Of a stretch of 64,000 nt of DNA, positions 28,901 through 62,322 are shown piece after piece. This stretch comes from Antedon mediterranea (Eukaryota > Animalia > Echinodermata), in NCBI RefSeq assembly GCF_964355755.1, contig NC_092675.1, positions 23,036,912-23,100,911 of the forward strand. The letters are read 5' to 3'. The translations under genes were made by a program, and so were the position numbers. How positions within the stretch are numbered: the stretch's first letter is position 1; every line of letters starts with the position of its first letter. The notes beneath the pieces were generated by a model. It was not told the DNA's origin. It made no database searches and saw only the letters and a list, made by a program, of their open reading frames with translations.

Positions 28901-28931
<31 letters not shown>

Positions 28932-28935
<4 letters not shown>

Positions 28936-29126: not shown

Positions 29127-29448
29127 GGTGGTGGTGGTTATTTATAACCACCATTTAAGCTGTTTTTTAGTCTCATTCCAAAATTGTTTATATCTCTACC
29201 AAGCTACCTTCTTTTTCTTTTATTCCTGTCCACCCAGGCAGCACTTGCCAGCTTTATACTATGACGTTATCCAAATTCTTTCACTTGCACTGATGAAGGG
29301 CTAGTGTTGCCCGAAAGCTCTGCTAACTTTTCTGGCTGTTTACTTTATCGTTTTGATTTAACTTTTCGCTTTTTATTTTTGTATCTCCATTGAGATCCAG
29401 CCACTGATACCCACAGCATTGTCATTTTTTTCAGTAATTTGCCTTTGG

Positions 29449-29483
<35 letters not shown>
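29127..29483 (+). mobile_element. (TA)n-tailed non-autonomous element resembling a Penelope-like pseudo-LTR, carrying a hammerhead ribozyme
   Basis: Family copies at 55117-55287, 57565-57812, 57813-57863 (-), 58095-58130 (-), 60831-60966 (-) and a fragment at ~12321-12349 (-). Copies that retain the 3' end finish in ..aatttgcctttggattta(TA)n or a close variant. Confidence 0.7.
29285..29326 (+). ncRNA. Minimal type I hammerhead ribozyme motif
   Basis: ttGCA-CTGATGA-A-GGGC(tagtgtt)GCCC-GAA-AGCT-C^TGCtaa. It has the complete catalytic core, a 4-bp stem II, a palindromic AGCU stem III and stem I GCA/TGC. Predicted cleavage is after C29320. Confidence 0.75.
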
Positions 29484-30175: not shown

Positions 30176-33100
30176 CTAGATGAATAGTAAATCTTGTGAA
30201 CACGAGCACTTTTCGGTCTGTTGTAGCTCAAGTTGAACTGTGCTGTTGTCACTGCATCTAAAATGTTTCAGTGACATACTGGTCTCTGATGGTTTACACA
30301 CCCCAGTTACACTTATTCTTTGGAGACGCTGTTCAATAGATATCACTTTAGTGTATGAAGGGCAGCATCCGGTACATTCAGTTGTCTCGATAACACCAGT
30401 GCATGTATGTCCAGAGTCTATTGTAATACACAGGTTCTTCTTTATTTGTTTGGTAGAACATGCTGTGGTTGGCTCTTCAATAGGGTTAATTTCTGTTGTA
30501 ACTTCTATTCTATCTACGTCAATGGAATGTGTTTCTTGAACAGGTGTCACTGAAATAATAATGTTTATAACTTGTTGTAAAGTTAGGTTTGTGCATTGAA
30601 GACATTCTGTTCTTCACTTAAGTTGGTAATTAAGTACAACTGGAAAATAAACATTTGAAACCTAAAAGTTGCTTTAATTATACTAAAATTATAATTTAAA
30701 AATGTACCTAATTCCTTGGCAACAGTTGTGAAGGAGTACGTAAATAACTCTGTCTCTGTTGATTTTTCGCAAGCTGCTATAAATAACTCGGAGCAGACAC
30801 GATCCTCCCATTTTCCAGTGGTTGATGTCAGAACAGCACAATTGGACGTACCTGGCTTTCCTAATTCCCAATCTGAAACATAGATAGTGAATTCAGAGTA
30901 CAGATAATAATATCCATGTACGGCCTATATAGGTGTGAAATATGAAAAAGAATATTGAGAATGTGGGTTTTAGAACCTAATCAGTAATAAAGCGTCTTTT
31001 TTAAGAAAGTAATAGGCCTAAGGCCGAAATGGAAATTATTTATGCCACTTGCATGCACAGTTTAATATTCAAATATTATTAAACAAACAACATACTTGTA
31101 AACCCAGATTCGTCTTGTCCACTACTCCATATTCCATCACCATTAACAGATAACCCAATCCACATAGCATCATTATACTTTCGACGTTGTGAAATCTTTG
31201 ATCTTAAAAACTCATTCTCTTCAAGATTATCAATTGTTGTCATCACTGCGTTTCTTTCTGAACAGAAAGAACTAGCTGACGAAAAACTCAACCTTCTTAA
31301 TGAAAACTGGTAACACTTTTTGTTGAAATAGACCCAGTTCTCAGGACACAATTCTAAAATAAAAAAAAGGTTTGTATCAGTATTTTATTTAACATTAAGC
31401 TAATGTATTATTATTGTTTAAATAATATTAAACCTATAATGTTGGAATTGGTATTATTTTTCAATATAAAATGATTACCAGAATGAAAACCCACCTGCAT
31501 AGTTTGTTTCTGAATAGCTTTCCGTAACTACCTGAGGTTTCTCAGTTGATTTGGATGACGAAATGTCAGCTTTGTTTTCAACATGAAATAAATCGGTACT
31601 TGTATCTCCATTGTCTTCTGTAGTCACGGGAGATTTGACTACTCCTTGGTCAACTTCATTAGGTGTCTGTGTTTCTCCATTTTTTGTTGTTTTTTCTGTG
31701 TCTGTTTCATCAACAAAAACGATTTCTGTAGTTTTATCAACTTGTTCAACCATATCAGGAGCTTCCGTCCCAACTTTGTTCTCACCTTCTCCTGACTCTG
31801 TATCATCTGTAACCGTTTCAATTTCTATCTCTGTGTCTACAACGACCTCAGGAAGAGCTTCAGTAGTTTCGTCTGACTTTTGGTCAACTTCATCAGGTGT
31901 CGGTGTTTCTTCTATAATATCATCACCTCCTGTTTCAACCACAATCTTTACCTGTGGCTCTTCCTCAGTAGTAGTAGTAGTAGTCTCTGTTTCTTTTTCA
32001 GGTTCTTCAACACCATTGGAAACAATTTCTTCATTAGTTTCGTCTGTGTCTGTTTCACCAGCAACATCAACAGTTTCCATAGTTTTGTCAGATATATCTT
32101 CAATAATCTCTGGACTCTCTGTTCCAAACATTTCCTCTGTTTCTTTTTTGTCATCAGTAAGCTCAGCTGTTGTCATTTCTGTTTCACCTTCAGCCTCAGC
32201 TTCTGTTTCTTCTATTGTTTTTCCAGTAGTCTCTTTATCTACTGTTTCATCCGTCACTGTTTCTTTTTCAATTGCCCCAGGACTCTCTGTTCCAACTGTT
32301 TCCTCTGTGTCTTTCTCATCATCAGTAGGCTCAGTCACAACATCCTCTTCCATCTCTTTGTTATCCATTGTTTCTGTTTCTTCTTCATCATCAACTTCTG
32401 TTGTAGTTGTTTCTTCTATTGTATCTTCAGTAGTCTCCTTTTCTACTGTTTCATCCGTCACTGTTTCTTTTTCGATTGCCTCAGGACTTTCTGTTTGAAC
32501 TGCTTCCTCTGTGTCTTTCTCATCATCAGTAGGCTCAGTCACAACATCCTCTCCCATCTCTTTCTTATCCATTATTTCTGTTTCTTCTTCATCATCAACT
32601 TCTGTTGTAGTTGTTTCTTCTATTGTATCTTCAGTAGTCTCCTTTTCTACTATTTCATCCGTCACTGTTTCTTTTTCAATTGCCTCAGGACTTTCTGTTG
32701 TAACTGTTTCCTCTGTGTCTTTTTTGTCATCAGTAGACTCAGTCACAACATCCTCTCCCATCTCGTTCTCATCCATTGTTTCTGTTTCTTCTTCAGCCTC
32801 AGCTTCAGTTGTTTCTTCTATTTCCTCAGTATCTTCAGGTGTGTCTTTTTCTACTATTTCATCCGTCACTGTTTCTTTTTCCATTGCCTCAGGACTGTCT
32901 GTTTGAACTGCTTCCTCTGTGTCTTTCTTATCATCAGTAGGCTCAGTCACAACATCCTCTCCTGTCTCTTTCTCATCCATTGTTACTTCTGTTTCCTCTT
33001 TAGCCTCAGGCTCTGTTGTAGTTGTATCTTCTATTTTCTCTCCAGTATCTTCAGTAGTCTCTTTTTCTACTGTTCCATCCGTCACTGTTTCTTTTTCAAT

Positions 33101-36100
33101 TGCCCCAGGACTGTCTGTTTGAACTGCTTCATCTGTGTCTTTCTCATCATCAGTAGGCTCAGTCACAACATCCTCTCCCATCTCTTTCTTATCCATTATT
33201 TCTGTTTCTTCTTCAGCCTCAGCTTCTGTTGTAGTTGTTTCTTCTTCAGTATCTTCAGGTGTGTCTTTTTCTACTATTTCATCCGTCACTGTTTCTTTTT
33301 CAATTGCCTCAGGACTTTCTGTTTGAACTGCTTCCTCTGTGTCTTTCTCATCATCAGTAGGCTCAGTCACAACATTCTCTTCCATCTCTTTGTTATCCAT
33401 TGTTTCTGTTTCTTCTTCAGCCTCAGCTTCTGTTGTAGTTGTTTCTTCTATTGTATCTTCAGTAGTCTCCTTTTCTACTATTTCATCCGTCACTGTTTCT
33501 TTTTCAATTGCCTCAGGACTTTCTGTTTGAACTGCTTCCTCTGTGTCTTTCTCATCATCAGTAGGCTCAGTCACAACATCCTCTTCCATCTCTTTGTTAT
33601 CCATTGTTTCTGTTTCTTCTTCATCATCAACTTCAGTTGTAGTTGTTTCTTCTATTGTATCTTCAGTAGTCTCCTTTTCTACTGTTTCATCTGTCACTGT
33701 TTCTTTTTCAATTGCCTCAGGACTTTCTGTTTGAACTGCTTCCTCTGTGTTTTTCTCATCATCAGTAGGCTCAGTCACAACATCCTCTTCCATCTCTTTG
33801 TTATCCATTGTTTCTGTTTCTTCTTCATCATCAGCTTCAGTTGTAGTTGTTTCTTCTATTGTATCTTCAGTAGTCTCCTTTTCTACTGTTTCATCCGTCA
33901 CTGTTTCTTTTTCCATTGCCTCAGGACTTTCTGTTTGAACTGCTTCCTCTGTGTTTTTCTCATCATCAGTAGGCTCAGTCACAACATCCTCTCCCATCTC
34001 TTTCTTATCCATTATTTCTGTTTCTTTTTCAGCCTCAGCTTCTGTTGTAGTTGTTTCTTCTTCAGTATCTTCAGGTGTGTCTTTTTCTACTATTTCATCC
34101 GTCCCTGTTTCTTTTTCAATTGCCTCAGGACTTTCTGTTTGAACTGCTTCCTCTGTGTCTTTCTCATCATCAGTAGGCTCAGTCACAACATCCTCTTCCA
34201 TCTCTTTGTTATCCATTGTTTCTGTTTCTTCTTCATCATCAACTTCTGTTGTAGTTGTTTCTTCTATTGTATCTTCAGTAGTCTCCTTTTCTACTGTTTC
34301 ATCCGTCACTGTTTCTTTTTCAATTGCCTCAGGACTTTCTGTTTGAACTGCTTCCTCTGTGTCTTTCTCATCATCAGTAGGCTCAGTCACAACATCCTCT
34401 TCCATCTCTTTGTTATCCATTGTTTCTGTTTCTTCTTCAGCCTCAGCTTCTGTTGTAGTTGTTTCTTCTATTGTATCTTCAGGTGTCTCTTTTTCTACTG
34501 TTTCATCTGTCACTGTTTCTTTTTCAATTGCTTCAGGACTCTCTGTTTGAACTGTTTCCTCTGTGTCTTTCTGTTCATCAGTAGGCTCAGTCACAACAGC
34601 CTCTCCCGTCCTTGTCTCATCTATTGTTACTGTATCATCCTTATCTGTCCCGGAAACTTCTGTTTCAGTGACTTCTTCACTTTCAAATTCCACAACTGAT
34701 TTGAAAGATGATTCTTCGTAAACAACATTTGTTGATGTTTTGCATATAACACGATGCACTTTTTTACACGATTCAGCCATCCACTTTCCTGTGGACGATA
34801 TAATTACTGCACAAGCTCTACCATCATCTCCAACTGAATCATCTACATTTATATTGGATGGTTCTCCATCCTTCCAATCTGTGAAATTAGATATATACTA
34901 CAAATTAGATAACATTTATTATTAGAAATTACGAATTCACTTGCTAATCGTCATATTCGATTATGAATTTTAGAATGAGGTTTATGAGATATCTGTTTTG
35001 ATGTATTATTGTATTGTAAAACCTTAAATCCGAGTTGCATGTTGAAATAAGCTGATTCCACTAACACTCATTATTTAATAAAAAGTATTTGACTTTCGAA
35101 ATTTCATTTATAAAACCAAACAAGATTGTCAAAAACATCGTCATAACTAAAGAAAACCATAATTGTGTGAATGTATTCTGTAAGGGAAAAGGAAGTTGCT
35201 TCATTTTATTTTTTATTTTCAAATAAAAAGAAGAAATTATTTACTACACAAATACTACAATATAGATAAAACTAGAAATTGCAAAGTGCAAGTGAGTGAA
35301 GCAGATATAACATTACATAGTTTTGATGAGTCAGGGCCCTCCTAAAGACAGAAACTGAATGTCAATATTAGAACACTTCTCATTGTACAATCTCTGCCTG
35401 ATAAATGTATTTCACCTGTAAACATCAACTCTGCATAGGTGTCTTATACCAATGTTTTGACAAGCAATGACTTTTATGAGAGGTCAAATTGCTGTGCAGA
35501 ATATGAATAGTTGACATAAAGCAATAAACATATTACACATAGAGCGTGTATTTGTATATGTTAGCTGCTTGTTTCCAAAATGTTATTCGTTAACATTATC
35601 GTATTCATTATTGGTGAAACATTTTCATATAATTCCAAGACAAATACCCAAAATTCTATTTTAAATTAAAATTTACTTACTTTCAAATTGAACATCTTCA
35701 CCGGATTGCCACCTCCATTCCATTCCATATTCGCGTGTATAACCTATCCATGCACGGTTATTGTACCACTTTTTCTTTAACAGATTCTCTTTAACAAATT
35801 CATTTTCATCTTTACTAGACATATCAGCTAGATAAGAATTTTGTTCTCGACAATATTTGATAGCAGCAAAAACAGTAAAGCGTTTATTTGTGAATTTATA
35901 GCAGCTTCCTTGATATTGCAGCCATCCTACATTACACAAACCTGCATGTAAAAGAATTATTATAATTAAAAATTAAAGACAAGATAACATTTAATAACAT
36001 TTGCTTAACCTAGATAAAGAACATTATTTACTCAATATTAGTGTATAGTGTACATTTTTCAGTTTAAAAATATGAATACATTATGTTTCTATTTTTACTT

Positions 36101-39100
36101 ACTGCATCCATTAATAGTTTCTTTATCATCATCTACAGTTCCGTCAATCTCATCTTCAGTTTCAGTTATTTCTTCTACCTGGTTTTCAACTGTAGTTGTC
36201 TGATCAGCAGTAACCTCTGTGTCAGTTTTTTCATCAATATCATTAGTTACGGTTCCTTCTGCATCTATCTCATCTCCAGTTGTTTTGTCATCAGTAGTCT
36301 CCGTGTCTACGTTGTCATCCATAACTGTTTCTTCTTCAGCAGTAGTTTCTGTGTCTTTCTCAGAATCATCAACGCCATTGGAAACAATTACTTCTGTTGT
36401 TTCATCTGTGTCTGTTTCATAAAAAATATTAATGGTTTCTGTAGTTTTGAAAGTTTCTTCTTCCACTGCCTCAGGACTTTCTGTTTCAGTTGGTTCCTCT
36501 TCATCAGTAGGCTCAATCACAACATCATCACTTGTCTTAATCTCATCTGTTGTCACTTCTGCTTTTGTTTCTGTTGTTTCCTCAATTTCTTTTAGAGTAC
36601 CTGCAGTAGTCTTTGTGTCTACTGTATAAACCGTAACTGTTTCTATCGTAGGCTCATTCCCAACAACCTCTTCCGTGTCTGCCCCATCTGTTACTTCTGT
36701 TTCTGTTTCATCACCAACCTTAGCTTTTGTTTCGGTTGTTTCTCCAGTTTCTTTTCCTGGTTCTTCAGTAGATTCTGTGTCTACTGAGTCAACAATTAAT
36801 GTTTCTTCTTCAGTAGTTGTAGGACTCTCTGTTTCATCTGTTTCCTCTGTTTCTTTCTCTTCGTCAGTAGGCCCAATCACAACAACATCTCCCTTATCAG
36901 TCCCACCTGTTGTTACTTCTGTTTCATCATCAACCTCAGCTTCTGTTTCAGTAGTTTCTTCAGTTTCTTTTCCGGGTTCTTCAGTAGATTCTGTGTCTGC
37001 TGTGTCAACAATTAATGTTTCTTCTTCAGTAGTTGTAGGACTCTCTGTTTCATCTGTTTTCTCTGTTTCTTTCTCTTCGTCAGTAGACTCAATCACATCT
37101 CCCTTATCTGTCCCACCTGTTGTTACTTCTGTTTCATCATCAACCTCAACTACTGTTTCAGTAGTTTCTTCAGTTTCTTTTCCGGGTTCTTCAGTAGATT
37201 CTGTGTCTGCTGTGTCAACAATTAATGTTTCTTCTTCAGTAGTTGTAGGAATCTCTGTTTCATCTATTACCTCTGTTTCTTTCTCTTCGTCAGTAGGATC
37301 AATCGCAACAACATCTCCCTTATCAGTTCCATCTGTTGTTACTTCTGTTTCATCACCAACGTCAGCTTCTGTTTCGGTTGTGTCTTCAGTTTTTTTTCCG
37401 GGTTCTTCAGTAGATTCTTCGTCAGAGGGCTCAATCACAACAACATCTCCCTTATCTGTCCCACCTGTTGTTACTTCTGTTTTATCATCAACGTCAGCTT
37501 CTGTTTCAGTAGTTTCTTCAGTTGCCTTTCCGGCATCTTCAATAGTTTCTGTGTCTACTGTTTCAACCGGTGTGTCTTCAGTTTCTTTTCCGGGTTCTTC
37601 AGTAGATTCTGTGTCTGCTGTGTCAACAACTAATGTTTCTCCTTCAATAGTTGTACGACTGTCTGTTTCCTCTGTTTCTTTATCTTCGTCAGTAGGCTCA
37701 ATCACAACAACATCTCCCTTATCAGTCCCACCTGTTGTTACTTCAGTTTCATCATCAACCTTAGCTTCTGTTTCAGTAGTTTCTTCAGTTGCCTTTCCGG
37801 CATCTTCAGTAGTTTCCGTGTCTACTGTCTCAACCGGAATTAATGTTTCTTCTTCAGTAGTTGTAGGACTCACTGTTTCTTTCTCTTCGTCAGTAGGCTC
37901 AATCACAACAACATCTCCCGTATCAGTCCCACCTGTTGTTACTTTGGTTTCATCATCAACCTCAGCTTTTGTTTCAGTAGTTTCTTCAGTTTCTTTTTCC
38001 GGTTCTTCAGTAGATTCTGTGTCTGCTGTGTCAACAATTAATGTTTCTTCTTCAGTATTTTTTGGACTCTCTGTTTCATCTATTACCTCTGTTTCTTTCT
38101 CTTCGTCAGTAGGTTCAATCACATCTACATCTTCCTTATCAGTCCCACCTGTTGTTACTTCTGTTTCATCACCAACCTCAACTACTGTTTCAGTAGTTTC
38201 TTCAGTTTCTTTTCCGGGTTCTTCAGTAGATTCTCTGTCTGCTGTGTCAACAATTAATGTTTCTTCTTCAGTTGTTGTAGGAGTCTCTGTTTCATCTGTT
38301 TCCTCTGTTTCTTTCTTTTCGTCAGTAGGCTCAATCACAACAACATCTCCCTTATCAGTCCCACCTGTTGTTACTTCAGTTTCATCACCAACGTCAGTTT
38401 CTGTTTCGCTTGTGTCTTCAGTTTCTTTTCTGGGTTCTTCAGTAGATTCTGTGTCTGCTGTGTCAACAATTAATATTTCTTCTTCAGTTGTTGTAGGAGT
38501 CTCTGTTTCATCTGTTTCCTCTGTTTCTTTCTCTTCATCAGTAGGCTCAATCACAACAACATCTCCCGTATCAGTCCCATCTGTTGTTACTTCAGTTTCA
38601 TCACCAACGTCAGCTTCTGTTTCGGTTGTGTCTTCAGTTTCTTTTCCGGGTTCTTTGGTAGATTCTGTGTCAGCTGTGTCAACAATTAATGTTTCTTCTT
38701 CAGTTGTTGTAGGACTCTCTGTTTCTTTCTCTTCGTCAGTAGGCTCAATCACAACAATATCTCCCTTATCAGTCCCACCTGTTGTTACTTCTGTTTCATC
38801 ACCAACGTCAGCTTCTGTTTCGGTTGTGTCTTCAGTTTCTTTTCCGGGTTCTTCAGTAAATTCTGTTTCTGCTATTTCAACAATTAATGTTTCTGTGTCT
38901 GCTGTGTCAACAATTAATGTTTCTTCTTCAGTTGTTGTAGGAGTCTCTGTTTCCTCTGTTTCCTCTGTTTCTTTCTCTTCGTCAGTAGGCTCAATCACAA
39001 CATCTCCCGTATCAGTCCCATCTGTTGTTACTTCAGTTTCATCACCAACGTCAGCTTCTGTTTCGGTTGTGTCTTCAGTTTTTTTTTCGGGTTCTTTGGT

Positions 39101-42100
39101 AGATTCTGTGTCTGCTGTGTCAACAATTAATGTTTCTTCTTCTGTTGTTGTAGGAGTCTCTGTTTCATCTGTTTCCTCAGTTTCTTTCTCTTCGTCAATA
39201 GGTTCAATCACATCTACATCTTCCTTATCAGTCCCACCTGTTGTTACTTCTGTTTCATCACCAACCTCAGCTTCTGTTTCAGTAGTTTCTTCAGTTTCTT
39301 TTCCTGGTTCTTCAGTAGATTCTGTGTCTGCTGTGTCAACAATTAATGTTTCTTCTTCAGTAGTTGTAGGAATCTCTGTTTCATCTATTACCTCTGTTTC
39401 TTTCTCTTCGTCAATAGGCTCAATCACAACAACATCTCCCGTATCAGTCCCATCTGTTGTTACTTCTGTTTCATCACCAACGTCAGCTTCTGTTTCGGCG
39501 GTGTCTTCAGTTTCTTTTCCGGGTTCTTCAGTAGATTCTGTGTCTACTGTGTCAACAATTAATGTTTCTTCTTCAGTAGTTGTAGGAATCTCTGTTTCAT
39601 CTATTACCTCTGTTTCTTTTTCTTCGTCAGTAGGCTCAATCACAACAACATCTCCCGTATCAGTCCCATCTGTTGTTACTTCTGTTTCATCACCAACGTC
39701 AGCTTCTGTTTCGGCTGTGTCTTCAGTTTCTTTTCCGGGTTCTTCAGTAGATTCTGTGTCTGCTGTGTCAACAATTAATGTTTCTTCTTCAGTAGTTGTA
39801 GGACTCTCTGTTTCAACTCTTTCCTCTGTTTCTTTCTCTTTTTCAGTAGGCTCAATCACAACAACATCTCCCTTATCAGTCCCACCAGTTGTTACTTCTG
39901 TTTCATCATCAACCTCAGCTTCTGTTTCGGTAGTTTCTTCAGTTTCTTTTCCGGATTCTTCAGTAGATTCTGTGTCTGCTGTGTCAACAATTAATGTTTC
40001 TTCTTCAGTTGTTGTAGGACTCTCTGTTTCTTTCTCGTCGTCAGTAGGCTCAATCAGAACAATATCTCCCTTATCAGTCCCACCTGTTGTTACTTCTGTT
40101 TCATCATCAACCTCAGCTTCTGTTTCGGTTGTGTCTTCAGTTTCTTTTCCGGGTTCTTCAGTAGATTCTGTGTCAACAATTAATGTTTCTTCTTCAGTTG
40201 TTGTAGGACTCTCTGTTTCTTTCTCTTCGGCAGTGGGTTCAATCACAACAACATCTCCCTTATCTGTCCCACCTGTTTCTACTTCGGTTTCATCATCAAC
40301 CTCAACTACTGTTTCAGTTGTTTCTTCAGTTTCTTTTCCGGGTTCTTCAGTAAACTCTGTGTCTGCTGTGTCAACAATTAATGTTTTTTCTTCAGTAGTT
40401 GTAGGAATCTCTGTTTCATCTATTACCTCTGTTTCTTTCTCTTCGTCAGTAGGTTCAATCACAACAACATCTCCCTTATCTGTCCCACCTGTTGTTACTT
40501 CTATTTCATCACTAACGTCAGCTTCTGTTTCGGTTGTGTCTTCAGTTTCTTTTCCGGATTCTTTGGTAGATTCTGTGTCTGCTGTGTCAACAATTAATGT
40601 TTCTTCTTCAGTTGTTGTAGGAGTCTCTGTTTCATCTGTTTCCTCTGTTTCTTTCTCTTCCTCAGTAGGCTCAATCACAACATCTCCCGTATCAGTCCCA
40701 TCTGTTGTTACTTCAGTTTCATCACCAACGTCAGCTTCTGTTTCGGTTGTGTCTTCAGTTTTTTTTTCGGGTTCTTTGGTAGATTCTGTGTCTGCTGTGT
40801 CAACAATTAATGTTTCTTCTTCTGTTGTTGTAGGAGTCTCTGTTTCATCTGTTTCCTCAGTTTCTTTCTCTTCGTCAATAGGTTCAATCACATCTACATC
40901 TTCCTTATCAGTCCCACCTGTTGTTACTTCTGTTTCATCATCAACCTCAGCTTCTGTTTCGGTAGTTTCTTCAGTTTCTTTTCCTGGTTCTTCAGTAGAT
41001 TCTGTGTCTACTGTGTCAACAATTAATGTTTCTTCTTCAGTAGTTGTAGGAATCTCTGTTTCATCTATTACCTCTGTTTCTTTCTCTTCGTCAATAGGCT
41101 CAATCACAACAACATCTCCCGTATCAGTCCCATCTGTTGTTACTTCTGTTTCATCACCAACGTCAGCTTCTGTTTCGGCGGTGTCTTCAGTTTCTTTTCC
41201 GGGTTCTTCAGTAGATTCTGTGTCTACTGTGTCAACAATTAATGTTTCTTCTTCAGTAGTTGTAGGAATCTCTGTTTCATCTATTACCTCTGTTTCTTTT
41301 TCTTCGTCAGTAGGCTCAATCACAACAACATCTCCCGTATCAGTCCCATCTGTTGTTACTTCTGTTTCATCACCAACGTCAGCTTCTGTTTCGGCTGTGT
41401 CTTCAGTTTCTTTTCCGGGTTCTTCAGTAGATTCTGTGTCTGCTGTGTCAACAATTAATGTTTCTTCTTCAGTAGTTGTAGGACTCTCTGTTTCAACTCT
41501 TTCCTCTGTTTCTTTCTCTTTTTCAGTAGGCTCAATCACAACAACATCTCCCTTATCAGTCCCACCAGTTGTTACTTCTGTTTCATCATCAACCTTAGCT
41601 TCTGTTTCGGTAGTTTCTTCAGTTTCTTTTCCGGGTTCTTCAGTAGATTCTGTGTCTGCTGTGTCAACAATTAATGTTTCTTCTTCAGTTGTTGTAGGAC
41701 TCTCTGTTTCTTTCTCGTCGTCAGTAGGCTCAATCAGAACAATATCTCCCTTATCAGTCCCACCTGTTGTTACTTCTGTTTCATCATCAACCTCAGCTTC
41801 TGTTTCGGTTGTGTCTTCAGTTTCTTTTCCGGGTTCTTCAGTAGATTCTGTGTCAACAATTAATGTTTCTTCTTCAGTTGTTGTAGGACTCTCTGTTTCT
41901 TTCTCTTCGGCAGTGGGCTCAATCACAACAACATCTCCCTTATCTGTCCCACCTGTTTCTACTTCGGTTTCATCATCAACCTCAACTACTGTTTCAGTTG
42001 TTTCTTCAGTTTCTTTTCCGGGTTCTTCAGTAAACTCTGTGTCTGCTGTGTCAACAATTAATGTTTTTTCTTTAGTAGTTGTAGGACTCTCTTTTTCATC

Positions 42101-45100
42101 TGTTTCCTCTGTTTCATCTGTTTTCTCCGTTTTTTTCTCTTCGTCAGTAGGTTCAATCACAACAACGTCTCCCTTATCAGTCCCACCTGTTGTTACTTCT
42201 GTTTCATCATCAACCTCAGCTTCTTTCTCAGTAGTTTCTTCAGTTTCTTTTCCGGGTTCTTCAGTAGATTCTGTGTCTACTGTGTCAACAATTAATGTTT
42301 CTTCTTCAGTAGTTGTAGGAATCTCTGTTTCATCTATTACCTCTGTTTCTTTCTCTTCGTCAGTAGGCTCAATCACAACAACATCTCCCGTATCAGTCCC
42401 ATCTGTTGTTACTTCTGTTTCATCACCAACGTCAGCGTCTGTTTCGGCGGTGTCTTCAGTTTCTTTTCCGGGTTCTTCAGTAGATTCTGTGTCTACTGTG
42501 TCAACAATTAATGTTTCTTCTTCAGTAGTTGTAGGAATCTCTGTTTCATCTATTACCTCTGTTTCTTTTTCTTCGTCAGTAGGCTCAATCACAACAACAT
42601 CTCCCGTATCAGTCCCATCTGTTGTTACTTCTGTTTCATCACCAACGTCAGCTTCTGTTTCGGCTGTGTCTTCAGTTTCTTTTCCGGGTTCTTCAGTAGA
42701 TTCTGTGTCTGCTGTGTCAACAATTAATGTTTCTTCTTCAGTAGTTGTAGGACTCTCTGTTTCAACTCTTTCCTCTGTTTCTTTCTCTTTTTCAGTAGGC
42801 TCAATCACAACAACATCTCCCTTATCAGTCCCACCAGTTGTTACTTCTGTTTCATCATCAACCTCAGCTTCTGTTTCGGTAGTTTCTTCAGTTTCTTTTC
42901 CGGGTTCTTCAGTAGATTCTGTGTCTGCTGTGTCAACAATTAATGTTTCTTCTTCAGTTGTTGTAGGACTCTCTGTTTCTTTCTCGTCGTCAGTAGGCTC
43001 AATCAGAACAATATCTCCCTTATCAGTCCCACCTGTTGTTACTTCTGTTTCATCATCAACCTCAGCTTCTGTTTCGGTTGTGTCTTCAGTTTCTTTTCCG
43101 GGTTCTTCAGTAGATTCTGTGTCAACAATTAATGTTTCTTCTTCAGTTGTTGTAGGACTCTCTGTTTCTTTCTCTTCGGCAGTGGGCTCAATCACAACAA
43201 CATCTCCCTTATCTGTCCCACCTGTTTCTACTTCGGTTTCATCATCAACCTCAACTACTGTTTCAGTTGTTTCTTCAGTTTCTTTTCCGGGTTCTTCAGT
43301 AAACTCTGTGTCTGCTGTGTCAACAATTAATGTTTTTTCTTCAGTAGTTGTAGGAATCTCTGTTTCATCTGTTTTCTCCGTTTCTTTCTCTTCGTCAGTA
43401 GGTTCAATCACAACAACATCTCCCTTATCAGTCCCACCTGTTGTTACTTCTGTTTCATCATCAACCTCAGCTTCTGTCTCAGTAGTTTCTTCAGTTTCTT
43501 TTCCGGGTTCTTCAGTAGATCCTGTGTCTGCTGTGTCAACCGTTAATGTTTCTTCTTCAGTAGTTGTAGGACTCTCTGTTTCATCTGTTTTCTCTCTTTC
43601 TTTCTCTTCGTCAGTAGGCTCAATCACATCTACATCTCCCGTATCAGTCCCATCTGTTGTTACTTCTGTTTCATCATCAACCTCAACTACTGTTTCAGTA
43701 GTTTCTTCACTTTCTTTTCCGGGTTCTTCAGTAGATTCTGTGTCTACTGAGTCAACAATTAATGTTTCTTCTTCAGTAGTTGTAGGAGTCTCTGTTATAT
43801 CTGTTTCCTCTGTTTCTTTCTCTTCATCAGTAGGTTCAACAACATCTCCAGTATCTGTCCCATCTGTTGTTAATTCTGGTTCTTCACCAACGTCAGCTTC
43901 TGTTTTGGTTGTGTCTTCAGTTTCTTTTCCGGGCTCTTCAGTAGATTCTTCGTCAGTGGGCTCAATCACAACAACATCTCTCTCATCAGTCCCACCTGTT
44001 GTAACTTCTGTTTCATCATCAACCTCAAGTACTGTTTCAGTAGTTTCTTCAGTTTCTTTTCCGGGTTCTTCAGTAGATTCTGTGTCTGCTGTTTCAACAA
44101 TTAATGTTTCTTCTTCAGTAGTTGTAGGACTCTCTGTTTCATCTGTTTCCTCTGTTTCTTTATCTTCGTCTGTAGGCTCAATCACAGCCACATCTCCCTC
44201 ATCAGTCCCACCTGTTGTTACTTCTGTTTCATCATCAACCTCAACTACTGTTTCAGTTGTTTCTTCAGTTTCTTTTCCGGGTTCTTCAGTAGATTCTGTG
44301 TCTGCTGTGTCAACAATTATTGTTTCTTCTTCAGTAGTTGTAGGAATCTCTGTTTCATCTATTACCTCTGTTTCTTTCTCTTCGTCAGTAGGATCAATCG
44401 CAACAACATCTCCCTTATCTGACCCACCTGTTGTTATTTCTGGTTCTTCACCAACCTCAGCTTCTGTTTTGGTTATTTCTTTTCCCGGATCTTCAGTAGT
44501 TTCCGTGTTTACTGTGTCATCCTTAGCTTCTGTTGGTTCAACCTCGATAACATTTTTATTTTCAGTAACATCCTCAGGGACAGCTTCAGTTGTAACCGTA
44601 CATTCTTCAGGTAATGGTAGCGTAGGATCTGGTATTTAATAGAGTTGCATATTGTTTATACATTGTTATATCGTGTATTTTATGGAATTTAATTTTAACA
44701 ACGTATTATTAACTTGAAATTTGAATGAATGATATTATTCTAACGGCTTTGATAAAGTCCCTTTTTAAAATGTTAATGATATAGAAAGGATTAAGACCTT
44801 GTTTGAAAGACAGAGAAAATATTTCTTTTTTTATAGGCTACAACACCCCTGATTGAATCATTGAATTAGATAATCTTGTAATTTTATTCCAGCTGGGCCA
44901 TTTTTAAATGTTTTATCGAATAATGACTGATCTCCTGAAAATACTAATTTATTTTTTTAAACTGTTTTTGTCACATAAAATATATTCACTTTTGTCAAAA
45001 AGTAGATCGAGAAACAGTTTTAAATTTTACAGTATTTAGAATATACTAACCAAATTCGCACAGTATCTTTATGTGTCTTTCACATGGTATTGCAAACCAC

Positions 45101-48100
45101 TGTCCTAAACGAACTTTCATTGCGGCACATAGGTTTCCTCTTTGTGGTTCTCCATCCTTCCACGCTGAAAATAATTTAAAATTATATAACTAATTAACTA
45201 AATATATTGAGTGAATGTAGTTTAATGTATATCTATGTATATATGATAAAGTATATGAATAGTAGTTGTGGAATGTGTTATTGTCTAAACATAAGAAATA
45301 TGTCACATCACCCACAATCTAAGGAACAACTCAATATCTCATGATTATGTAAAGGAACATGCTTTGTTTAGTGCAATACCTTCAAACCGTGATGTCTCAT
45401 CAGTTGGAATCCAACGATATCCATCAACCTGTGAAATGTAACGGTAGCCTATCCAGATAAGCTTGGTTTTGTAACCATCGTCAATAAGTCTTTCTTGCAG
45501 AAAGTCGTTTTCTTCTTGAGACGATATGACAACAGGTCTGGCATTGCACATTTCCTCGTTACATCGTGCGGCAATGCCCTCAAACGGATTTGCGTTTGCC
45601 ACAAAGTAACAATTCTTTCCATAACTGTAGGTTTGAGCCGGACATTCTGTGAAATAAATAATATGCGATAAATAATGTTTCAATATCTAATGTTCCCATG
45701 TTGTTGTCTAATATTTAAATGTGTATTTTTTATTTCGACAGGGTTAGCAAATATACATTGCTCCGATATCCTGTCATTATATGTATGCGAAACATCTTAT
45801 TATATAGCTATACTTTAAGAAAATGCACATCCAATACCGTAAATCCCGTTTAATATATTAGGGAGCTTTTGCATCGGGACGGTAAATGAAGGGGATGGTA
45901 ATTAACAGAGCGTAACGATTTTTTTCGACACAAGCGCTGACGTCATCCTTCTTGGTGAGTTTATGCGTCTTTGGTTAGAAAAGTTTATTTAGTCATTTTT
46001 GTCATTACCAAAATTGCAGCTTGACAAGGGAATAAGATATCTGAATCCTTTGATTTTCCGACGACAACATTACAATGATTAATTAAAAATGTCTTACCTA
46101 TCATAGGTTCTGCCGTCCTTTTCGCTATTCTATGGTTAACCTATGTAATATAAATATATACAATGATAGATATTTTCAATTTAAATCAACTTGAAACAGT
46201 GTTTCAATATCGAATATCCGTCGATATTCGTACGATAACAAGCTCAATTTATAGAACCTAACTCTTAAAGAAAGTTAACCTACTCTAACCTAAATACTTA
46301 ATAATATTAATTGAGTAAAATGGCCGAGTGGTTAAGACAGAAACGCCGTTTACCATACATCAGTTCGAGGCCGACTACCTCCTAGTTCTGGTGGTGGAAC
46401 AAGTCTTCTCAGATATGGAATATAAGCCGTAGGTCCAATGTACACAATTTGCCCTTTGCCTTTAACGAAAATCATTCGTTCCCGGTGAACTGGTTTACAA
46501 AATATCCTCTTGGTCAGTGAGATTGTCACCAATCGGATAGGACAGTGATTGATTTACTAACACTAATTAATCAGTGGAGCTGCTGATTGGCAGAAAATCG
46601 TCGACATAAACTTTCTGAAAATGAGATTATTGTATTTGTCGTGTGATTATACTGCATAATTTTCGTCGTCGCTAAACAAGATACCGATCTGGTGAAACAG
46701 TCTGGTATGTTCTTTTTAAAATTATAACTAGTATTTATTATGAAACATGAACAAACCAGGCTTAGTTTCTCTGAAAAATTGCTAAGAAAACATGTCATGG
46801 ACAACAGTATAATAAAATTGGTAAAATAGTCAAAGTAAAGCAAGAAAAAAAAAATTATAGTCATGCAGACAGTTTCATGTTATAAGAAGGTTTTAAGGAC
46901 GTACATGTGTATTGCAAAGTGGTAGATCGGTTTGCCGTTTTGTATTTTTACACTATTACACATTGCTGTATTTATAATACTCATGTGCTACTCACAATTT
47001 GATATTGTAAAATTAACATATTAATTAACGGAAACATTTTAGGCATGAGGAAATAAAGCTATTAACCTCGTTCTAAAATGCAATGGTGTTCTTTATATTA
47101 TGATTATGAACTCGCTCTAAATTGATTAGGATACCGTGGCATGCTATGGACTGCTGTATTGAATTGAAATGATGGACCTGTTTCAATCGTAATCAATCAT
47201 TTCCACATGCAAAAATTGACCGTTTGAACATTAATTTAAAACCGTATTATCATACTGGTTCACTACCAAATTGATGCATGCATTTTCGGTATGTTGAAGT
47301 TATTATAATCTATACAGTAATTTGTATTTAGCTTGTACAGTTTTATAAAGCCAGCCTAATGTTTATGGACGTTTTCAGAAAACACAAGTAATAAAAAAAA
47401 AAAACAATAGGCCTACAGGCGTATAGACAGTAATATTAATAATATTAAAAATAATGGAATCAGTCTTTAATATTATAAAACAACCCAATAAATAAAGTCA
47501 TGTTAGAACATATAAACATATAAGCGCGTAACAATTTCGAAAGGCATTGTGGGATAGAATAGAGCTATGGGTGGTGCCATTGTGAGCCATGGAGTAGGGC
47601 GCCCGCATCAAATTAGAAAGTCAAAATCATAGAGGGGATCTGCTAATGCTCTAGGGGGGATAGAGTAATTGACTGAGGAGTAGGGCGCCCGCATCAAATT
47701 AGAAAGTCAAAATAATTGAGGGGATCTGCTAATACTCTAGGGGGTAGAGTAATTGACTACCTAGTTTGGAGGGGGAGCTGCTCCATGCTGTGAAATGGCG
47801 TCGCCCAGTTTGACCTTTTAACCCTGTACTTCCGATACTGTGTTTTGAATGCAAATTGAAGAACAGGAGATTCTTGTGTTATAAGTTCTTTGATATAAGT
47901 AATAATCAAATGAACCGCTAAACATTCTGAATTGTGTATTAATGTACGTTACGTGAGCCGCTGTTTTAATACATCTGTGTTATGTCACTATAAACTTCCT
48001 TCCAGCTTAACAGCTGAACTGATTCAGTGGTTATATCAATGAACTTTCGAATTGAGATAATTATCGTAAAAGTTCGTCATGCAATGCAAGATATTAAATA

Positions 48101-51100
48101 GTCTATTAAAAAGGATAAATGTAACAAGTTGTTTCATTATAATTTAACTATTATATTTAGTCATGACAAACTGGTGTACCATTATATCGATAATTATGAC
48201 GATCCACTTGGAAATGTAATTATCAAATGTGTATTCGCTCAAAGGGGAAGAAAAATCGTGAAGTGCCTATATTGTGTGACGGTGATATGAAATTTATAAA
48301 CTAAAGCTCTGTCTACACTATCAAACTTTAAGACAAATAATGTGATGTGCCTATGGACATGATGATGTCATATCACTACCGTATTTAGGCATATCACACT
48401 TTTTTGTCAAACTAGAAATTGATAATGATGCCATATTATAATTATCATGATTTAGGCCTAAAATAAATTTATATAAATTAATCTATTAAAATGTTTTACG
48501 ATGAACCAATATAATTTTATTTTGTTTGTTTGATAGATGCTGTTTTTTTTAAATTGGAGATGAACATCTTTAAATACGGTAGCCAATTTTCTGGTTCAAT
48601 TTAAAAAAATGGCTGTATATGTATTGTGTATTAGACACCTAAAGAACAATCCATTTTGAAATGAAATTTAATTATCAAATGTGTACTCGCTCAAAGGAGG
48701 AAGAAAAACAAAGTACCTATCTCATTTGATGATATGAAACGTATTTGTGAAACTTAGATGTCAGAAATTGATTGTGATGCCATCCATTTTTATGTCATTA
48801 CAATTTAGGCCTAATCACAAAAAGTAAGACCAGAAACAAGATGACTTTACAAAACAATTTTTACTCGATCGTTAACTACATTAAGAGTATCTGAGGACAG
48901 GATGACTTTTAAATTTGTCTTAAATGTACCGTGTCTGAACATTAGCCTGGTCAAGCGACCGACTATAACCGAATTACGGAAGAACTGTCACAGTAAGTTT
49001 TAAAATATTTTTACAAATTAGTTTGTGAACGGCCATTGCACTATTTTTATATCCGTCGACAAATACAATATGATAGAAAGAGAAGCGTGTAAAGGTTGCG
49101 CCATCTACAGTACGGTCGACTTCGCTTTATGAATTTTAACCAGATTTCAAAGCAATCGACTGCGGTGCGGTGCTCCGTTTGGAGAGATATTTTAAAAGGA
49201 CAAATACCCACTCAATTAACGTGAGCTGAAAGAACACAGGGGTTCGTTTTTCTAGTGGCTGATCTGGATAGGCGCGAATGCTGACGGCTGTGAGTCCGCA
49301 GATTAAATTGCCTCAGTTACAAGTTATGCTGGGGGACGATAATAAAACATACCTATACTCGATAACCAAACGGGAAGGGTAAGCCCAAAATGGTGTTTCA
49401 GATTCTAAAGCTGTTGTTTATATTGGATAAATAATCTTGTTATAGGCGATTTATTTTCATCGCTATAAAACATTGATTTATTTTGTTTTGTACCGCTATA
49501 GTGCCGCTATAGCTAAATAATTTCTAGTAGGCAGTGTTGAGTATGGTTGATAGAGCTAACCTAACACTTTTTAAAAAATAGAAGCGTACTTAGCTGTGGC
49601 TCCATGAAAAATAATTTATTGCGACTATTTTCCAACGCGACATATTTTATCCCGTCACCAATCTTTATATTAGGTCGGTGGTATACCAGTATAAATTGAA
49701 AGTATTTAAACTGAGTGACGTAATAATTAATTTGTAAATATGCCTTTCTAATTTGTATCATCATCATCATTGGCAAGATCCAGGGGCGGATGAATTGAGT
49801 TCATTGGTGGTATGTGATAATAATAATATAATATCCTGGATTTATATAGCGCCTAATGTTGTGAAACCTCTAAGCGCTGAATAATATTACCCCAGTCAAT
49901 TTTTTGATCAAACATACTCCCATAATGCAGCTAGTATTCAGCGCAAAGTGGGATTCGAACCTCGATCTCTCGATCAGTAATCCAACGTCCGGACACACTT
50001 TGCGCCACACGCCCTAACTGGCGACGGCAAGAAAGCCTCCTTCCCACAAGTTAACATCTGCCCTAAAAATATGTAAATAGTAATATACCTCGAGGCTACA
50101 TTATAGTACTGTGACTACACTACTTTCACAATACAAAAATTTGAATTAATGTAGGCCTCATAATTAGAAATATTTAAAGTAAATTAATAAAAGAACAAAA
50201 AAAAATCCATTTCATTCAATTATTAAACAGAAAGATCTGATTTATAAGGAAATTTGATGTAAGCTTTAGTACAGTAACAGTCAACATAAGAGAACATAAA
50301 ACATTTTGTTCAATAACATATACTGCAAGTCGTTGCTAATTGCAATCCCTTTTGGGTTAAAACAAGTGCATTCTTTAAAAGATATCGCAGACATCATTTA
50401 TGTAAACGAAAGTAGACCTGTCAATATCAGTATGAATGATGTAACTGTAACACGTTTTCAAGTTCCTAATTTTGGTTTTTCTCCATTTTTTTTATGATAT
50501 TATATAATTATTTATCAGCCTACAAAATACAAGGCTAGCTAATTTTAAAAATGGACAATAAATCTTTATACAAAGTATAGGCTATACATCTAATTTAGAA
50601 GTATTACCAGAGTTAACACAGTTCTATAAAGATGTATTGTCTTATATAAAATGAAAAATAAAGATTAATAAAATCAGACTTTGAAGATGTTTGTAGTTAC
50701 TTCCGATGGGGAAAATGACAAAATAAATGGTTAAGTTCAACTAAAAAACCTATTGGCTGGCAGCCAATTTGACAATGTTTTGCTTTAAATTACAGTTTTT
50801 TAGGTAAATACATTTTCTTTTTCAAAGTGGATAACTATTATATGTCTATTACTACTATTATATTAAACTAACAACTTTTTTTTAAGGGGGACAATACATC
50901 TTTAAAATATGAACTAAATGTGTTGACAATTAACCAATACAATTGTATTTTTTGTTTTATAAATGCATTTTTTTTTTCAAAATTAGCAATGAACATCTTC
51001 TAATAGCCAAATTTCCGGTTCAGTTAAAAAACTGTAAAAATGTATCTTTATTAAAATCTTAATACATACTTGAATTATTATCAAATCAATACACATAATA

Positions 51101-51321
51101 CGTATTTTATTAATCTCACAGCTACGATTAAACTAGAAATTAGCATTGTTAATGTAAGATATATATATATATATTTTATAAATGTCCAATCTAATTTTTT
51201 TTAATGGCCATATTTAATAAATCACGGTTCTGAAAAAAAAGTATTACTATAAACTTACCAGCTTGACTGCCTGTACAGTTGTCAACATGCACAACACAAT
51301 AATGGTATGTAGGTCTCTCAT
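30176..51321 (-). CDS. Giant secreted C-type-lectin / acidic-repeat / C-terminal cystine-knot protein (~4,480 aa); exons 51321-51259, 46140-46098, 45646-45380, 45164-45051, 44628-36103, 35941-35681, 34878-31495, 31353-31096, 30872-30708, 30549-30176
   Basis: Signal peptide MRDLHTIIVLCMLTTVQA. Three split CTL domains (CPxxxxxYxxxCY..., WIGY/WIGL, W.DGEP...C...G.W...C......C). Two E/T/D-rich repeat exons. The last exon has CTGCCPS...C.P...C...CSC (CTCK pattern). All ten exons join with GT-AG sites and matching phases into 13,455 nt with no internal stop found. Confidence 0.8.
32230..34600 (-). repeat. Coding 204-bp (68-aa) tandem repeat, acidic block 2
   Basis: VVTEPTDDEKDTEEAVQTESPEAIEKETVTDE... 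units. The shadow + strand ORFs recur every 204 bp (33135, 33339, 33543, 33747, ...). Confidence 0.95.
36700..44480 (-). repeat. Coding ~65-75-aa tandem repeat, acidic block 1, with higher-order duplications (1680 bp and ~1269 bp)
   Basis: VVIEPTDEEKETE...PTTTEEETLIVDTADTESTEEPGKETEETTETEAEVDDETEVTTGGTDKGD units. The 60-nt line at 39001 is identical to that at 40681, and sequence at 41392 recurs at 42661. Confidence 0.95.
46313..46445 (+). mobile_element. tRNA-derived SINE with Nin/Deu-like core; paralogous copy at 62467-62570
   Basis: A box tggccgagtggttaag and B-box-like gttcgaggcc, then gtcttctcagata...tataagccgtaggtcc, which resembles the GGATxAGAC.TAAACCG.AGGTCC Nin/Deu core. It sits at the same position upstream of exon 2 in both lectin paralogs. 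Confidence 0.6.
47525..47892 (-). mobile_element. Second copy of the 32-bp-TIR MITE, one TIR deleted
   Basis: Near-identical reverse complement of 26243-26610. ATATAAG flanks both sides (47518-47524, 47893-47899). Confidence 0.85.
48302..48415. mobile_element. Truncated hairpin MITE
   Basis: taaagctctgtctacactatcaaac terminus and an internal inverted repeat gacaaataatgtgatgtgcct / aggcatatcacactttttgtc. It is absent from the degenerate duplicate at ~48655-48815. Confidence 0.55.
49817..50015 (-). mobile_element. Internally deleted tRNA-derived SINE
   Basis: Minus-strand head gggcgtgtggcgcaaag...gaggttcgaatcccac (A and B boxes) and tail cagcgcttagagg...ggcgctatataaatccaggatattatattattattat, shared with 10030-10082. 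Confidence 0.6.
50630..50901. mobile_element. MITE with agatgtattgtc TIRs in an (A/T)TAA context (Kolobok-like, tentative); degenerate relatives at ~20230-20490 and ~21830-21910
   Basis: taaagatgtattgtc ... gacaatacatcttta. The internal ttgctttaaattaca..tttt.aggtaaa motif is shared with 21868-21900. Confidence 0.55.
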
Positions 51322-57776: not shown

Positions 57777-57818
<42 letters not shown>

Positions 57819-61700: not shown

Positions 61701-62322
61701 GTGATGTCTCTTCAGTTGGAATCCAACGATATTCATCAACCTGTGAAATGTAACGGTAGCCTATCCAGATAAGCTTCGTTCTGTAACCATCGTCAATAAG
61801 TCTTTCTTGCAAAAAGTCGTTTTCATCTTGAGACGATATGACAACAGGCCTGGCATTGCATCTTTCCTCGTTACATTGTGCGGCAATGCCCTCAAACGGA
61901 TTTGCGTTTGCCACAAAGAAACAATTATTTCCATAACTGTAGGTTTGAGCCGGACATTCTGTGAAATTAATAACACAAATAATGTTTCAATATCTAATAA
62001 TGTTCCCATGTTATTGTCTAATATAAATGTGTATTTTTTTTTTATCACGACAGGGTTAGCAAATATAAATTGCTCCGATACTCTTTAATGTCTTTAATGG
62101 AGGAAAGTGCTTAGGTTAGGAAAGTTTATTTCGCCGTTTTTGTCATTACCAAAAAGGCAGCTTCACAAGGAAATAAGATATCTTGCTATGTTACCATGAT
62201 TATAATGGTAGCTGCATGAAGATGTGGATTGATTTGAGTTCAGCCCGACGACAAAAATACAATGATAAAAATGTCTTACCTATCATAGATTCTGGCGTCC
62301 TTTTCTCTATTCTATAGTTAAC
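58745..62322 (-). CDS. Truncated tandem paralog of the giant lectin gene (exons 62322-62280, 61958-61692, 60802-60689, 60258-58745): CTL plus ~500-aa acidic repeat
   Basis: Exons and introns are collinear with 46140-44628 and have identical exon lengths (43/267/114 nt), intact splice sites and an open frame. The repeat exon stops abruptly (VTTGAE*) where homology ends. It may be functional or a young pseudogene. Confidence 0.7.
60831..61585 (-). mobile_element. Composite insertion in paralog intron: two tRNA(ATC) elements, one fused to the hammerhead-element tail, one with an inverted 5' segment
   Basis: Absent from the matching intron of the full gene (45165-45379). The junction gggcaac|cgcccggtgat is at ~60966. 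Inverted arms at 61469-61503 / 61543-61585. Confidence 0.75.

Follow-up and report, generated by a model that had tools for sequence, protein, structure and literature searches.

A transcribed feather star gene predicted to encode a giant secreted protein with three CTL domains, two acidic repeats and a C-terminal cystine knot

We describe a gene of the feather star Antedon mediterranea, on the minus strand of the 64-kb stretch of DNA analysed (the window, whose positions are used throughout), that would encode a 4,484-aa chain in the order signal peptide, CTL domain, acidic repeat of ~2,825 aa (R1), CTL domain, acidic repeat of ~1,075 aa (R2), CTL domain and cystine knot. The gene is transcribed, and splicing of its six 3′ exons is observed. 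Judged on sequence, the product appears to belong to none of the gel-forming mucins, the SM30/SM50 proteins or the lecticans. The layout and sizes proposed in the initial annotation hold, including its 3,900 repeat residues (R1, aa 176-3000; R2, aa 3141-4215) and its single 8,526-nt exon. The ten exons are as follows.

51259..51321, minus strand: exon 1, holding the ATG, a GT donor and a predicted signal peptide (aa 1-~18)
46098..46140, minus strand: exon 2, brief propiece carrying a dibasic KR site, placed by AG/GT ends and frame
45646-45380 and 45164-45051, minus strand: exons 3-4, CTL1 (aa ~36-162), matched by Pfam Lectin_C
44628-36103, minus strand: exon 5, 8,526 nt, acidic repeat R1, open frame with period 216
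35941-35681, minus strand: exon 6, N-terminal part of CTL2 (aa 3005-3091), both joints in X1
34878-31495, minus strand: exon 7, 3,384 nt, CTL2 end, R2 and acidic tail, both joints in X1
31353-31096 and 30872-30708, minus strand: exons 8-9, CTL3 (aa 4220-~4345), joints in X1
30549-30176, minus strand: exon 10, linker and cystine knot with stop at 30176-30178, X1 contig

The joined CDS is 13,455 nt with a single terminal stop, and all nine introns are bounded by GT..AG. An AG acceptor immediately precedes the exon 1 ATG, implying an upstream untranslated exon, and the exon 10 transcript extends to at least 29905. Spliced contigs from run X1 join all five of the introns tested (of nine in total), from the giant exon through the knot (36103>35941, 35681>34878, 31495>31353, 31096>30872 and the last acceptor at 30549, in frame), which bears out, over that span, the earlier proposal of a single gene. 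None of the runs carrying this sequence is recorded as RNA. X1 is one run of one study whose library type is a guess (“RNA?”); since five introns are skipped in its contigs, we take it to be RNA. Contigs from runs X2-X5, which derive from one sample that is possibly the source of this DNA, continue through the introns. Two other acceptors for exon 10 were discarded, X1 using 30549 in place of each: the nearer AG at 30639 leads to a premature stop, and 30606 is in frame but has a poor pyrimidine tract. Long plus-strand ORFs across the repeats were set aside as antisense shadows, since splicing follows the minus strand. Blocks of 1,269 and 1,680 nt within exon 5 are recent duplications with 99.7% identity, so the exact exon length could be allele-specific or a feature of the assembly. 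Repeat exons of this size are easily lost from short-read gene models, and such proteins may consequently be missing from proteome databases.

The predicted protein has a mass of 494 kDa, 36% Asp plus Glu, 22% Thr and a net charge of -1,323. It is predicted to be secreted, its signal segment being its sole hydrophobic segment. Tryptic digestion is predicted to give 283 peptides, 206 of which measure 7-35 aa. The two repeats are alike in composition, with 39-40% Asp plus Glu against 5-7% basic residues, 21-25% Thr, 4% Pro, 2-6% Gly, less than 1% Phe plus Tyr, and neither Cys nor Trp; Pro, Thr and Ser together make up 31.5% of R1 and 27.6% of R2. Their ~3,900 disordered residues carry a net charge of about -1,310, and both repeats stretched out would span up to ~1.4 micrometres. 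R1 comprises ~39 units, mostly of 72 aa (216 nt), and is bordered by Cys172 at the start of exon 5 and a lone Cys3004 at its end, while R2 comprises 12 units of 68 aa (204 nt; period 204 x 11.9) followed by an acidic tail. A crude count over 10 of the 12 R2 units gave a pN/pS of 0.86 between units, meaning that replacement differences are nearly as frequent as silent ones; conservation appears to act on length and charge more than on sequence.

Pfam Lectin_C matches all six CTL exon pieces, four of them above the curated cut-off (E values of 6.7e-5 and 0.024 for exons 3 and 4; 2.9e-9 and 2.7e-5 for exon 6 and the CTL2 part of exon 7; 1.5e-8 and 0.0012 for exons 8 and 9). In the ESM Atlas, the CTL2 end plus R2 start reached at best 0.83, which we take as a lead only. 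Sugar-binding C-type lectins carry EPN or QPD plus WND at Ca2+ site 2; none of the three CTLs has this canonical site by sequence, the corresponding motifs being EPQ/WFA, EPS/WMA and KPG/WED. CTL1 additionally carries an extra Cys69.

Exon 10 contains ten Cys (4391, 4401, 4410, 4419, 4422, 4423, 4445, 4459, 4475 and 4477). By spacing, rather than from a solved structure, 4391, 4419, 4423, 4445, 4475 and 4477 are assigned as the six knot Cys (CxGxC plus CxC) and C4410/C4459 as a fourth, finger disulfide pair. The knot spacings, 18-8-3-21-13-15-1, can be set beside the 14-10-3-19-13-15-1 given for VWF in a passage of PMC8626975. The best ESM Atlas match is DAN/Cys_knot at 0.92 (194/256 features), with all ten of the best named matches in one clan, and Pfam DAN matches the last exon below its cut-off of 22 bits (18.2 bits, E 0.0026). 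Structural comparison used two models of low confidence (pLDDT 45.7 and 50.8): with one, Foldseek placed Norrin at E 0.03 and prob 1.00, with nothing at E<=0.001, and VIA gave a best Z of 5.1 (rmsd 4.5 over 82); with the other, VWF CK alone was matched, at E 1.1. The Atlas match and the Cys spacing together support the identification of the last domain as a CTCK/DAN-like cystine knot, as initially annotated.

The accompanying suggestion that the protein polymerises in the manner of mucins or VWF finds no support in the form proposed. Of the three interchain Cys of VWF (Cys2771, Cys2773 and Cys2811, or Norrin 93, 95 and 131; passages of PMC8626975, PMC6333368 and PMC4497409), the knot has no equivalent: C4445 is preceded by Thr at -3 and by Val at -1, and the seven residues after C4477 are free of Cys. 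The N-terminal D domains are likewise missing. The mature chain does have an odd number of Cys, 31, so that at least one is unable to pair within the chain; this odd count, the two extra knot Cys and the lone Cys before CTL2 make another disulfide linkage, by an interchain scheme other than that of mucins and VWF, plausible. One of the extra knot Cys, Cys4422, sits as in the CxGCC motif of VEGF, a family whose chains are linked through the Cys that follows the conserved glycine (PMC3328748, in part). The two extra Cys could also pair otherwise or stay free.

Searches for relatives with the knot exon against proteins of 217-2000 aa and with the CTL3 exon against proteins of 150-2000 aa yielded none among 37 and 85 candidates, respectively; a 4,484-aa relative falls outside both size ranges, so these searches could miss proteins so long. 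The knot exon had no match among PDB sequences. Against 1.84 billion representatives it had a single match, a bacterial PKD-repeat protein; we discarded it as artefactual, the match being the sum of 13 weak stretches. The architecture is undescribed in the literature searched, which comprised sources other than subscription journals. Within the window, a truncated tandem copy lies upstream of the gene, without a second CTL or a knot:

58745..62322, minus strand: truncated tandem copy, open frame joined
62322-62280, minus strand: propiece, retained like exon 2 of the main gene
61958-61692 and 60802-60689, minus strand: CTL (Lectin_C E 5.9e-5)
60258-58745, minus strand: acidic exon, stopping after ~505 aa

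At the DNA level, the first CTL exon and the sequence flanking it are 92% identical between copy and main gene. A suspected likeness of an exon at 63158-63051 to a proteinase-K-type prepro start was not borne out, and no subtilisin motif occurs elsewhere within the 64-kb window. A nearby Cables exon is 100% identical to Antedon mediterranea and 88% to Anneissia japonica, and a Thr/Ser mucin-like exon lies 13 kb from the gene.

Our preferred reading, which we hold tentatively and at somewhat less than even confidence, is that the protein is a dimerising polyanionic Ca2+ scaffold outside cells, in the calcifying matrix of the calcite skeleton. The signal peptide would export the protein and the knot would likely join two chains by their tails, a bond between Cys4422 and the partner's finger-tip Cys possibly securing the pair in place of the mucin/VWF cysteines, while the lone Cys3004 could tie in more chains to give a branched net. 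Binding of Ca2+/Mg2+ and water by the ~3,900 disordered residues would be weak but in bulk, and these residues would hold amorphous carbonate and shape crystal growth. The three CTL-like domains, lacking sugar motifs, may serve as knobs at intervals along the chain on which proteins or mineral dock. The crinoid host and the strongly acidic chain favour this reading. Echinoderm skeletal matrix proteins are described as secreted, elongated, acidic, repetitive and fast-evolving, with a CTL plus an acidic or repetitive disordered region as a recurrent design (passages of PMC5460417 and PMC4336488), and as hydrogel formers (PMC6771980, in part). The Anneissia skeletal proteome contains CTL proteins, two according to the text and three according to the Fig. 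3 table of PMC7351957; counting against the skeletal reading, passages of the same paper report those of the adult skeleton to be without repetitive domains. The words lectin, cystine, mucin, acidic and CTCK are absent from four supplements other than its main supplementary PDF. The 22% Thr, which could bear O-glycans in mucin fashion, also counts against it.

The protein might instead form a swelling gel, comparable to lecticans, in soft connective tissue such as arm ligaments or mutable collagenous tissue, with charge encoded in the polypeptide rather than in aggrecan's glycosaminoglycan chains, CTL-like knobs binding matrix proteins and divalent cations tuning stiffness. This we consider rather unlikely. 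It accords with the globular-polyanion-globular layout, with repeats that could, when extended, bridge fibrils and with the reported lack of aggrecan, versican, brevican and neurocan in echinoderms (PMC10381214, in part), but the lectican domains are absent and Ser-Gly sites in the repeats are few. Still less probable, in our estimate, is an acidic component of a mucus or adhesive, whether of the food groove, the tube-foot papillae, larval attachment or a brood glue, with O-glycans on its Thr and gelation by the Ca2+ of seawater. The VWF-like knot spacing, the Thr content and the mucin-like exon nearby speak for it, as does limpet mucus, which contains highly acidic proteins and one protein combining vWFD, CTL-like domain, EGFs and C-terminal knot (passages of PMC7333891); yet Pro, Thr and Ser total only 28-32%, with 4% Pro, where MUC2 has 60% Thr and 20% Pro, 77-78% of repeat Thr have Asp/Glu within two residues downstream, and VWD, C8, TIL and mucin-type interchain cysteines are lacking. 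We give little credence to some other specialised secretion, such as a coat of the egg or embryo, a lining of the gut or a store of ions, or to a shorter CTL-repeat form as the main product. Short forms would be easily made, given that the upstream copy terminates within its acidic exon and that readthrough of the exon 5 donor meets a stop two codons on, and the X1 joints cover five of the nine introns, the other four being the 5′ ones; however, the sole X1 contig over the exon 5 donor splices to CTL2, and the intron there has no X1 cover. A more specific proposal is a covalent, GAG-free polyanion network, in which a VEGF-like pair replaces the mucin/VWF Cys and the lone mid-chain Cys creates branches, that templates stereom or sets ligament stiffness via Ca2+; this combination we regard as improbable.

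The gene and its truncated neighbour show that CTL-acidic-repeat proteins are encoded in the genome of a feather star, a member of the crinoids, which are sister to all other living echinoderms. Skeletal proteomes had led to the conclusion that such proteins are peculiar to sea urchins (passages of PMC7351957 and PMC5460417), a scenario that would need revision if the protein is skeletal. If it resides in ligament, it would be a concrete candidate for a polyanion controlling mutable collagenous tissue. The knot offers a simple test case for whether the interchain disulfide scheme of a CTCK-like domain can change.

Several known systems invite comparison. Lecticans such as aggrecan and versican have a long polyanionic middle flanked by globular ends that include a CTL, with Ig and Link domains, an EGF-CTL-CCP end and clustered Ser-Gly sites. 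Against this general outline, our protein shares the polyanionic middle between globular parts, but its charge comes from Glu/Asp instead of Ser-Gly-linked glycosaminoglycans (eight Ser-Gly sites in the whole chain, four in the repeats, two in each) and it ends in a knot; its cysteine-bearing exons have only Lectin_C-clan and DAN Pfam matches, with none to Ig/Link, EGF or CCP, in keeping with the earlier view that it is unlike lecticans. The likeness to SM50/SM30 that was also put forward stands for design and fails for size, repeats and pI. SM30, SM50, SM32, SM37 and PM27 share secretion, an echinoderm origin and a CTL-like domain joined to a repetitive disordered region (passages of PMC5460417 and PMC6771980), whereas spicule matrix proteins have a single CTL, 270-428 aa, Pro/Gly/Gln/Met-rich repeats of MAPQG type and pI of 5.7-10.7 (10.7 for SM50 and 5.7 for SM30), SM30/SM50 being ten times smaller and not strongly acidic (PMC6771980, in part); here there are three CTLs, Glu/Thr/Asp repeats and a cystine knot. 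With gel-forming mucins and VWF the protein shares a giant secreted chain that has Thr-rich repeats and ends in a knot; the last Cys spacings of this knot, 13, 15 and 1, are common to VWF (PMC8626975, in part), and its best structural matches, in the models, are Norrin and the VWF CTCK. The protein differs in having three CTL-like domains, none of the three interchain Cys, two extra Cys elsewhere, no PTS domain as judged by composition, and no D1-D3 head, which mucin polymers require (PMC7599080, in part): the 172 residues before the repeat comprise signal, propiece and CTL1, residues 173-3003 are devoid of Cys, and VWD-C8-TIL assemblies are absent. The limpet pedal-mucus protein P-vulgata_1 also joins a CTL-like domain and a C-terminal cystine knot in one secreted chain, but it has 1,854 aa, is rich in Cys (7.6%) and is of the vWFD/EGF/Kazal kind, and passages of PMC7333891 list no acidic repeat for it. 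VEGF/PDGF knots share the CxGCC motif, with its extra Cys after the glycine (interchain in VEGF; PMC3328748, in part); these are free growth factors with the partner Cys elsewhere, whereas the feather star knot adds a fourth disulfide pair of the VWF/Norrin/DAN type.

The studied gene is real and transcribed. Six-frame translation gives two long open frames on the minus strand, at 44635-36098 (2,846 codons) and 34897-31478 (1,140 codons), surrounded by short C-type lectin-like (CTL) and cysteine-rich frames. Ten joined exons with GT..AG introns yield 13,455 nt encoding 4,484 aa with a single terminal stop, matching the ∼4,480 aa and the 8,526-nt exon of the initial annotation. Contigs from X1, a single run of one study whose library kind we guessed to be RNA, confirm all five introns tested (the gene has nine): a 1,841-nt contig reaching from the tail of the second acidic repeat (R2) to 29905 skips 30550-30707, 30873-31095, and 31354-31494, and a second, of 1,310 nt, leaves out 34879-35680 along with the intron between exons 5 and 6. 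These are separate contigs, none spanning the whole transcript; taken with the unbroken frames of exons 5 and 7, they place the first acidic repeat (R1), CTL2, R2, CTL3, and the C-terminal knot in one gene, as originally proposed. In runs X2-X5, all from one sample that may have supplied the window's DNA, contigs cross the introns unspliced. The four 5′ introns are predicted from splice signals, frame, and conservation in an upstream copy. With the closest acceptor, 30639, the last exon would run into a stop ahead of the knot, so RNA was needed here; the X1 contig, skipping 30550-30707, joins the exon at 30549 instead. The start-codon exon begins at an AG acceptor, and candidate untranslated exons lie upstream of it at 52340-52160 (minus strand), with a GTAAGT donor near 52310.

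The N-terminus bears the sole hydrophobic segment and there is no transmembrane stretch, so secretion is predicted. The three CTL domains initially recognized are borne out by Pfam Lectin_C matches to six of six CTL exon pieces; canonical sugar/Ca2+ motifs occur in none of the three. Their intron position is identical, and R1 and R2 are related (41% protein and 67% DNA identity, in low-complexity sequence with no shuffled control), which suggests growth of the gene by duplication of a CTL-plus-repeat cassette. R1 has ∼39 units, mostly of 72 aa, and R2 has 12 units of 68 aa; in both, D+E is 39-40%, K+R 5-7%, Thr 21-25%, and Ser 2-3%, and the entire chain carries a net charge of -1,323. The pN/pS of R2 units, 0.86 by a crude count over the 10 of 12 with exactly 68 aa between motif starts, fits the expectation for repeats in which sequence counts for less than composition and length. 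Blocks of 1,269 and 1,680 nt in exon 5 are repeated at 99.7%, which may mean that the array grew very recently or may stem from the assembly.

That the last exon encodes a cystine knot, in keeping with the CTCK pattern first noticed there, is supported by several observations taken together. Eight of its 10 cysteines align by spacing with the four intrachain bonds reported for VWF (2724-2774, 2739-2788, 2750-2804, and 2754-2806; PMC8626975), the last three spacings (13, 15, 1) being identical; Pfam DAN scores under its cut-off; and DAN/Cys_knot clusters top the ESM Atlas result (0.92). Structure search with the main model, a low-confidence single-sequence prediction (pLDDT 45.7), places Norrin (E 0.03, prob 1.00) and VWF CTCK (prob 0.96-0.98) at the top and names knot proteins in 37 of 38 among the matches listed, with 0 of 415 matches at E<=0.001. 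VIA with this model gives a best Z of 5.1 (rmsd 4.5 over 82). A second, shorter model was uninformative, its best match being VWF CK at E 1.1 and the remainder noise.

The mucin/VWF-like polymerization initially suggested does not survive comparison with these proteins. VWF is described as dimerizing through Cys2771-Cys2773′, Cys2773-Cys2771′, and Cys2811-Cys2811′, the first two essential (PMC6333368), and the equivalent residues Cys93, 95, and 131 are reported to link Norrin chains (PMC4497409); cysteine is absent at all three corresponding knot positions. D3 heads, reported as also required for mucin and VWF polymers (PMC7599080), are missing from the studied protein. We therefore rejected this reading, the mucin route being impossible for such a chain. 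Covalent dimers or nets formed otherwise are plausible, given two extra knot cysteines (C4401 and C4422, beyond the VWF-type eight), an odd 31 cysteines in the mature chain, and C3004, which lies just ahead of CTL2 at an X1-supported joint and is partnerless within its domain. C4401 is near the first hairpin tip of the pLDDT 45.7 model (strands 7-18 and 24-35) and C4422 is within CxGCC at the knot itself; judged by sequence position, they would lie far apart, one at each end of a stretched-out domain, making an intrachain bond between them unlikely, and could be joined across a head-to-tail dimer. The VEGF cysteine that follows the CxGCC-type glycine is reportedly interchain (PMC3328748). Alternatively, C4401 could bond C4410 across the hairpin, leaving C4459 and C4422 free.

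Upstream lie a shortened tandem copy and a candidate first exon for it:
62322-58745, minus strand, upstream tandem copy: retains the propiece and CTL1 and ends in a stop after an acidic repeat of ∼505 aa
63158-63051, minus strand, candidate first exon of the copy: 108 nt, ATG, signal-like start, GT donor, in frame

This exon bears no relation to the main gene's exon 1; together with the copy it would encode a predicted 682-aa single-CTL acidic protein. It has no match in Pfam or PDB searches and may resemble a proteinase-K-type protease prepro start, in which case the copy would be a chimera. The first CTL exons of copy and main gene show 4 silent and 9 replacement differences, too few for a judgement on selection in the copy.

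Elsewhere in the window, the gene for Cables, the CDK5 and ABL1 enzyme substrate, at ∼22317-28180, plus strand, is convergent with the studied gene; its last exon (27968-28177, plus) has 100% identity to an Antedon mediterranea protein, 88% to Anneissia japonica, and 72% to the next best, which identifies the window as feather star DNA. A 1,258-codon plus-strand frame at 13448-17221 (Thr 33%, Ser 16%, 159/201/312-nt repeats; no Pfam match) looks like a mucin-like exon of another gene, of which a 193-codon plus-strand frame with a hydrophobic segment at 11701-12282 (no Pfam match) may be an upstream exon. The acidic, Ser-rich 453-codon frame at 438-1799, plus strand (no Pfam match), probably represents a large exon from a nuclear-protein gene, and two overlapping plus-strand frames at 6686-7518 resemble, by eye, a broken LINE reverse-transcriptase end. 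A shared dispersed element containing an 86-nt tandem unit occurs at 26377-26544 and 47591-47758, a ∼250-nt one (87-95% identity) at 29240-29483, 57565-57809, 55117-55301, and 60830-60965, and several tRNA-like SINE fragments at, e.g., 28930-29050, 12600-12700, and 57880-58000.

We propose that secreted chains would pair through the knot, each extending as a polyanion of up to ∼1.4 micrometres whose repeats would bind Ca2+/Mg2+ and water in bulk, with the CTL-like knobs serving for docking. We tentatively place this in a calcifying matrix, at somewhat less than an even chance: echinoderm skeletal matrix proteins are described as combining CTL domains with acidic, repetitive, disordered regions (PMC5460417, PMC4336488, PMC6771980), a shared layout that counts for this site, although the CTL proteins of the adult Anneissia skeleton are reported as repeat-free (PMC7351957) and SM50/SM30 as small and not strongly acidic (PMC6771980). 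The layout would also suit a lectican-like ligament gel in animals reported to be without lecticans (PMC10381214), which we consider rather unlikely. A mucus or adhesive component is more doubtful again: Thr content, the knot, and a limpet protein reported with both CTL and knot (PMC7333891) speak for it, but the repeat composition is far from PTS as described for mucins (PMC7599080). Other roles are quite improbable.

No relative turned up in the searches, but two of them covered only proteins <2,000 aa, and a representative protein library did not return even A. mediterranea's own protein; this negative is therefore weak evidence. A public annotation exists for A. mediterranea and could include this gene, and we found no description of the architecture in the open literature. 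The protein partly resembles gel-forming mucins and VWF, SM30/SM50, and lecticans, but by their defining tests it falls outside each, so that its separation from lecticans in the initial annotation was sound, and of the SM30/SM50 likeness first pointed to only a partial resemblance stands. Spicule matrix proteins are nearer in layout to the predicted 682-aa copy product than to the main protein, which we regard as a novel form of secreted matrix protein combining CTLs and acidic repeats, and whose knot is unusual.
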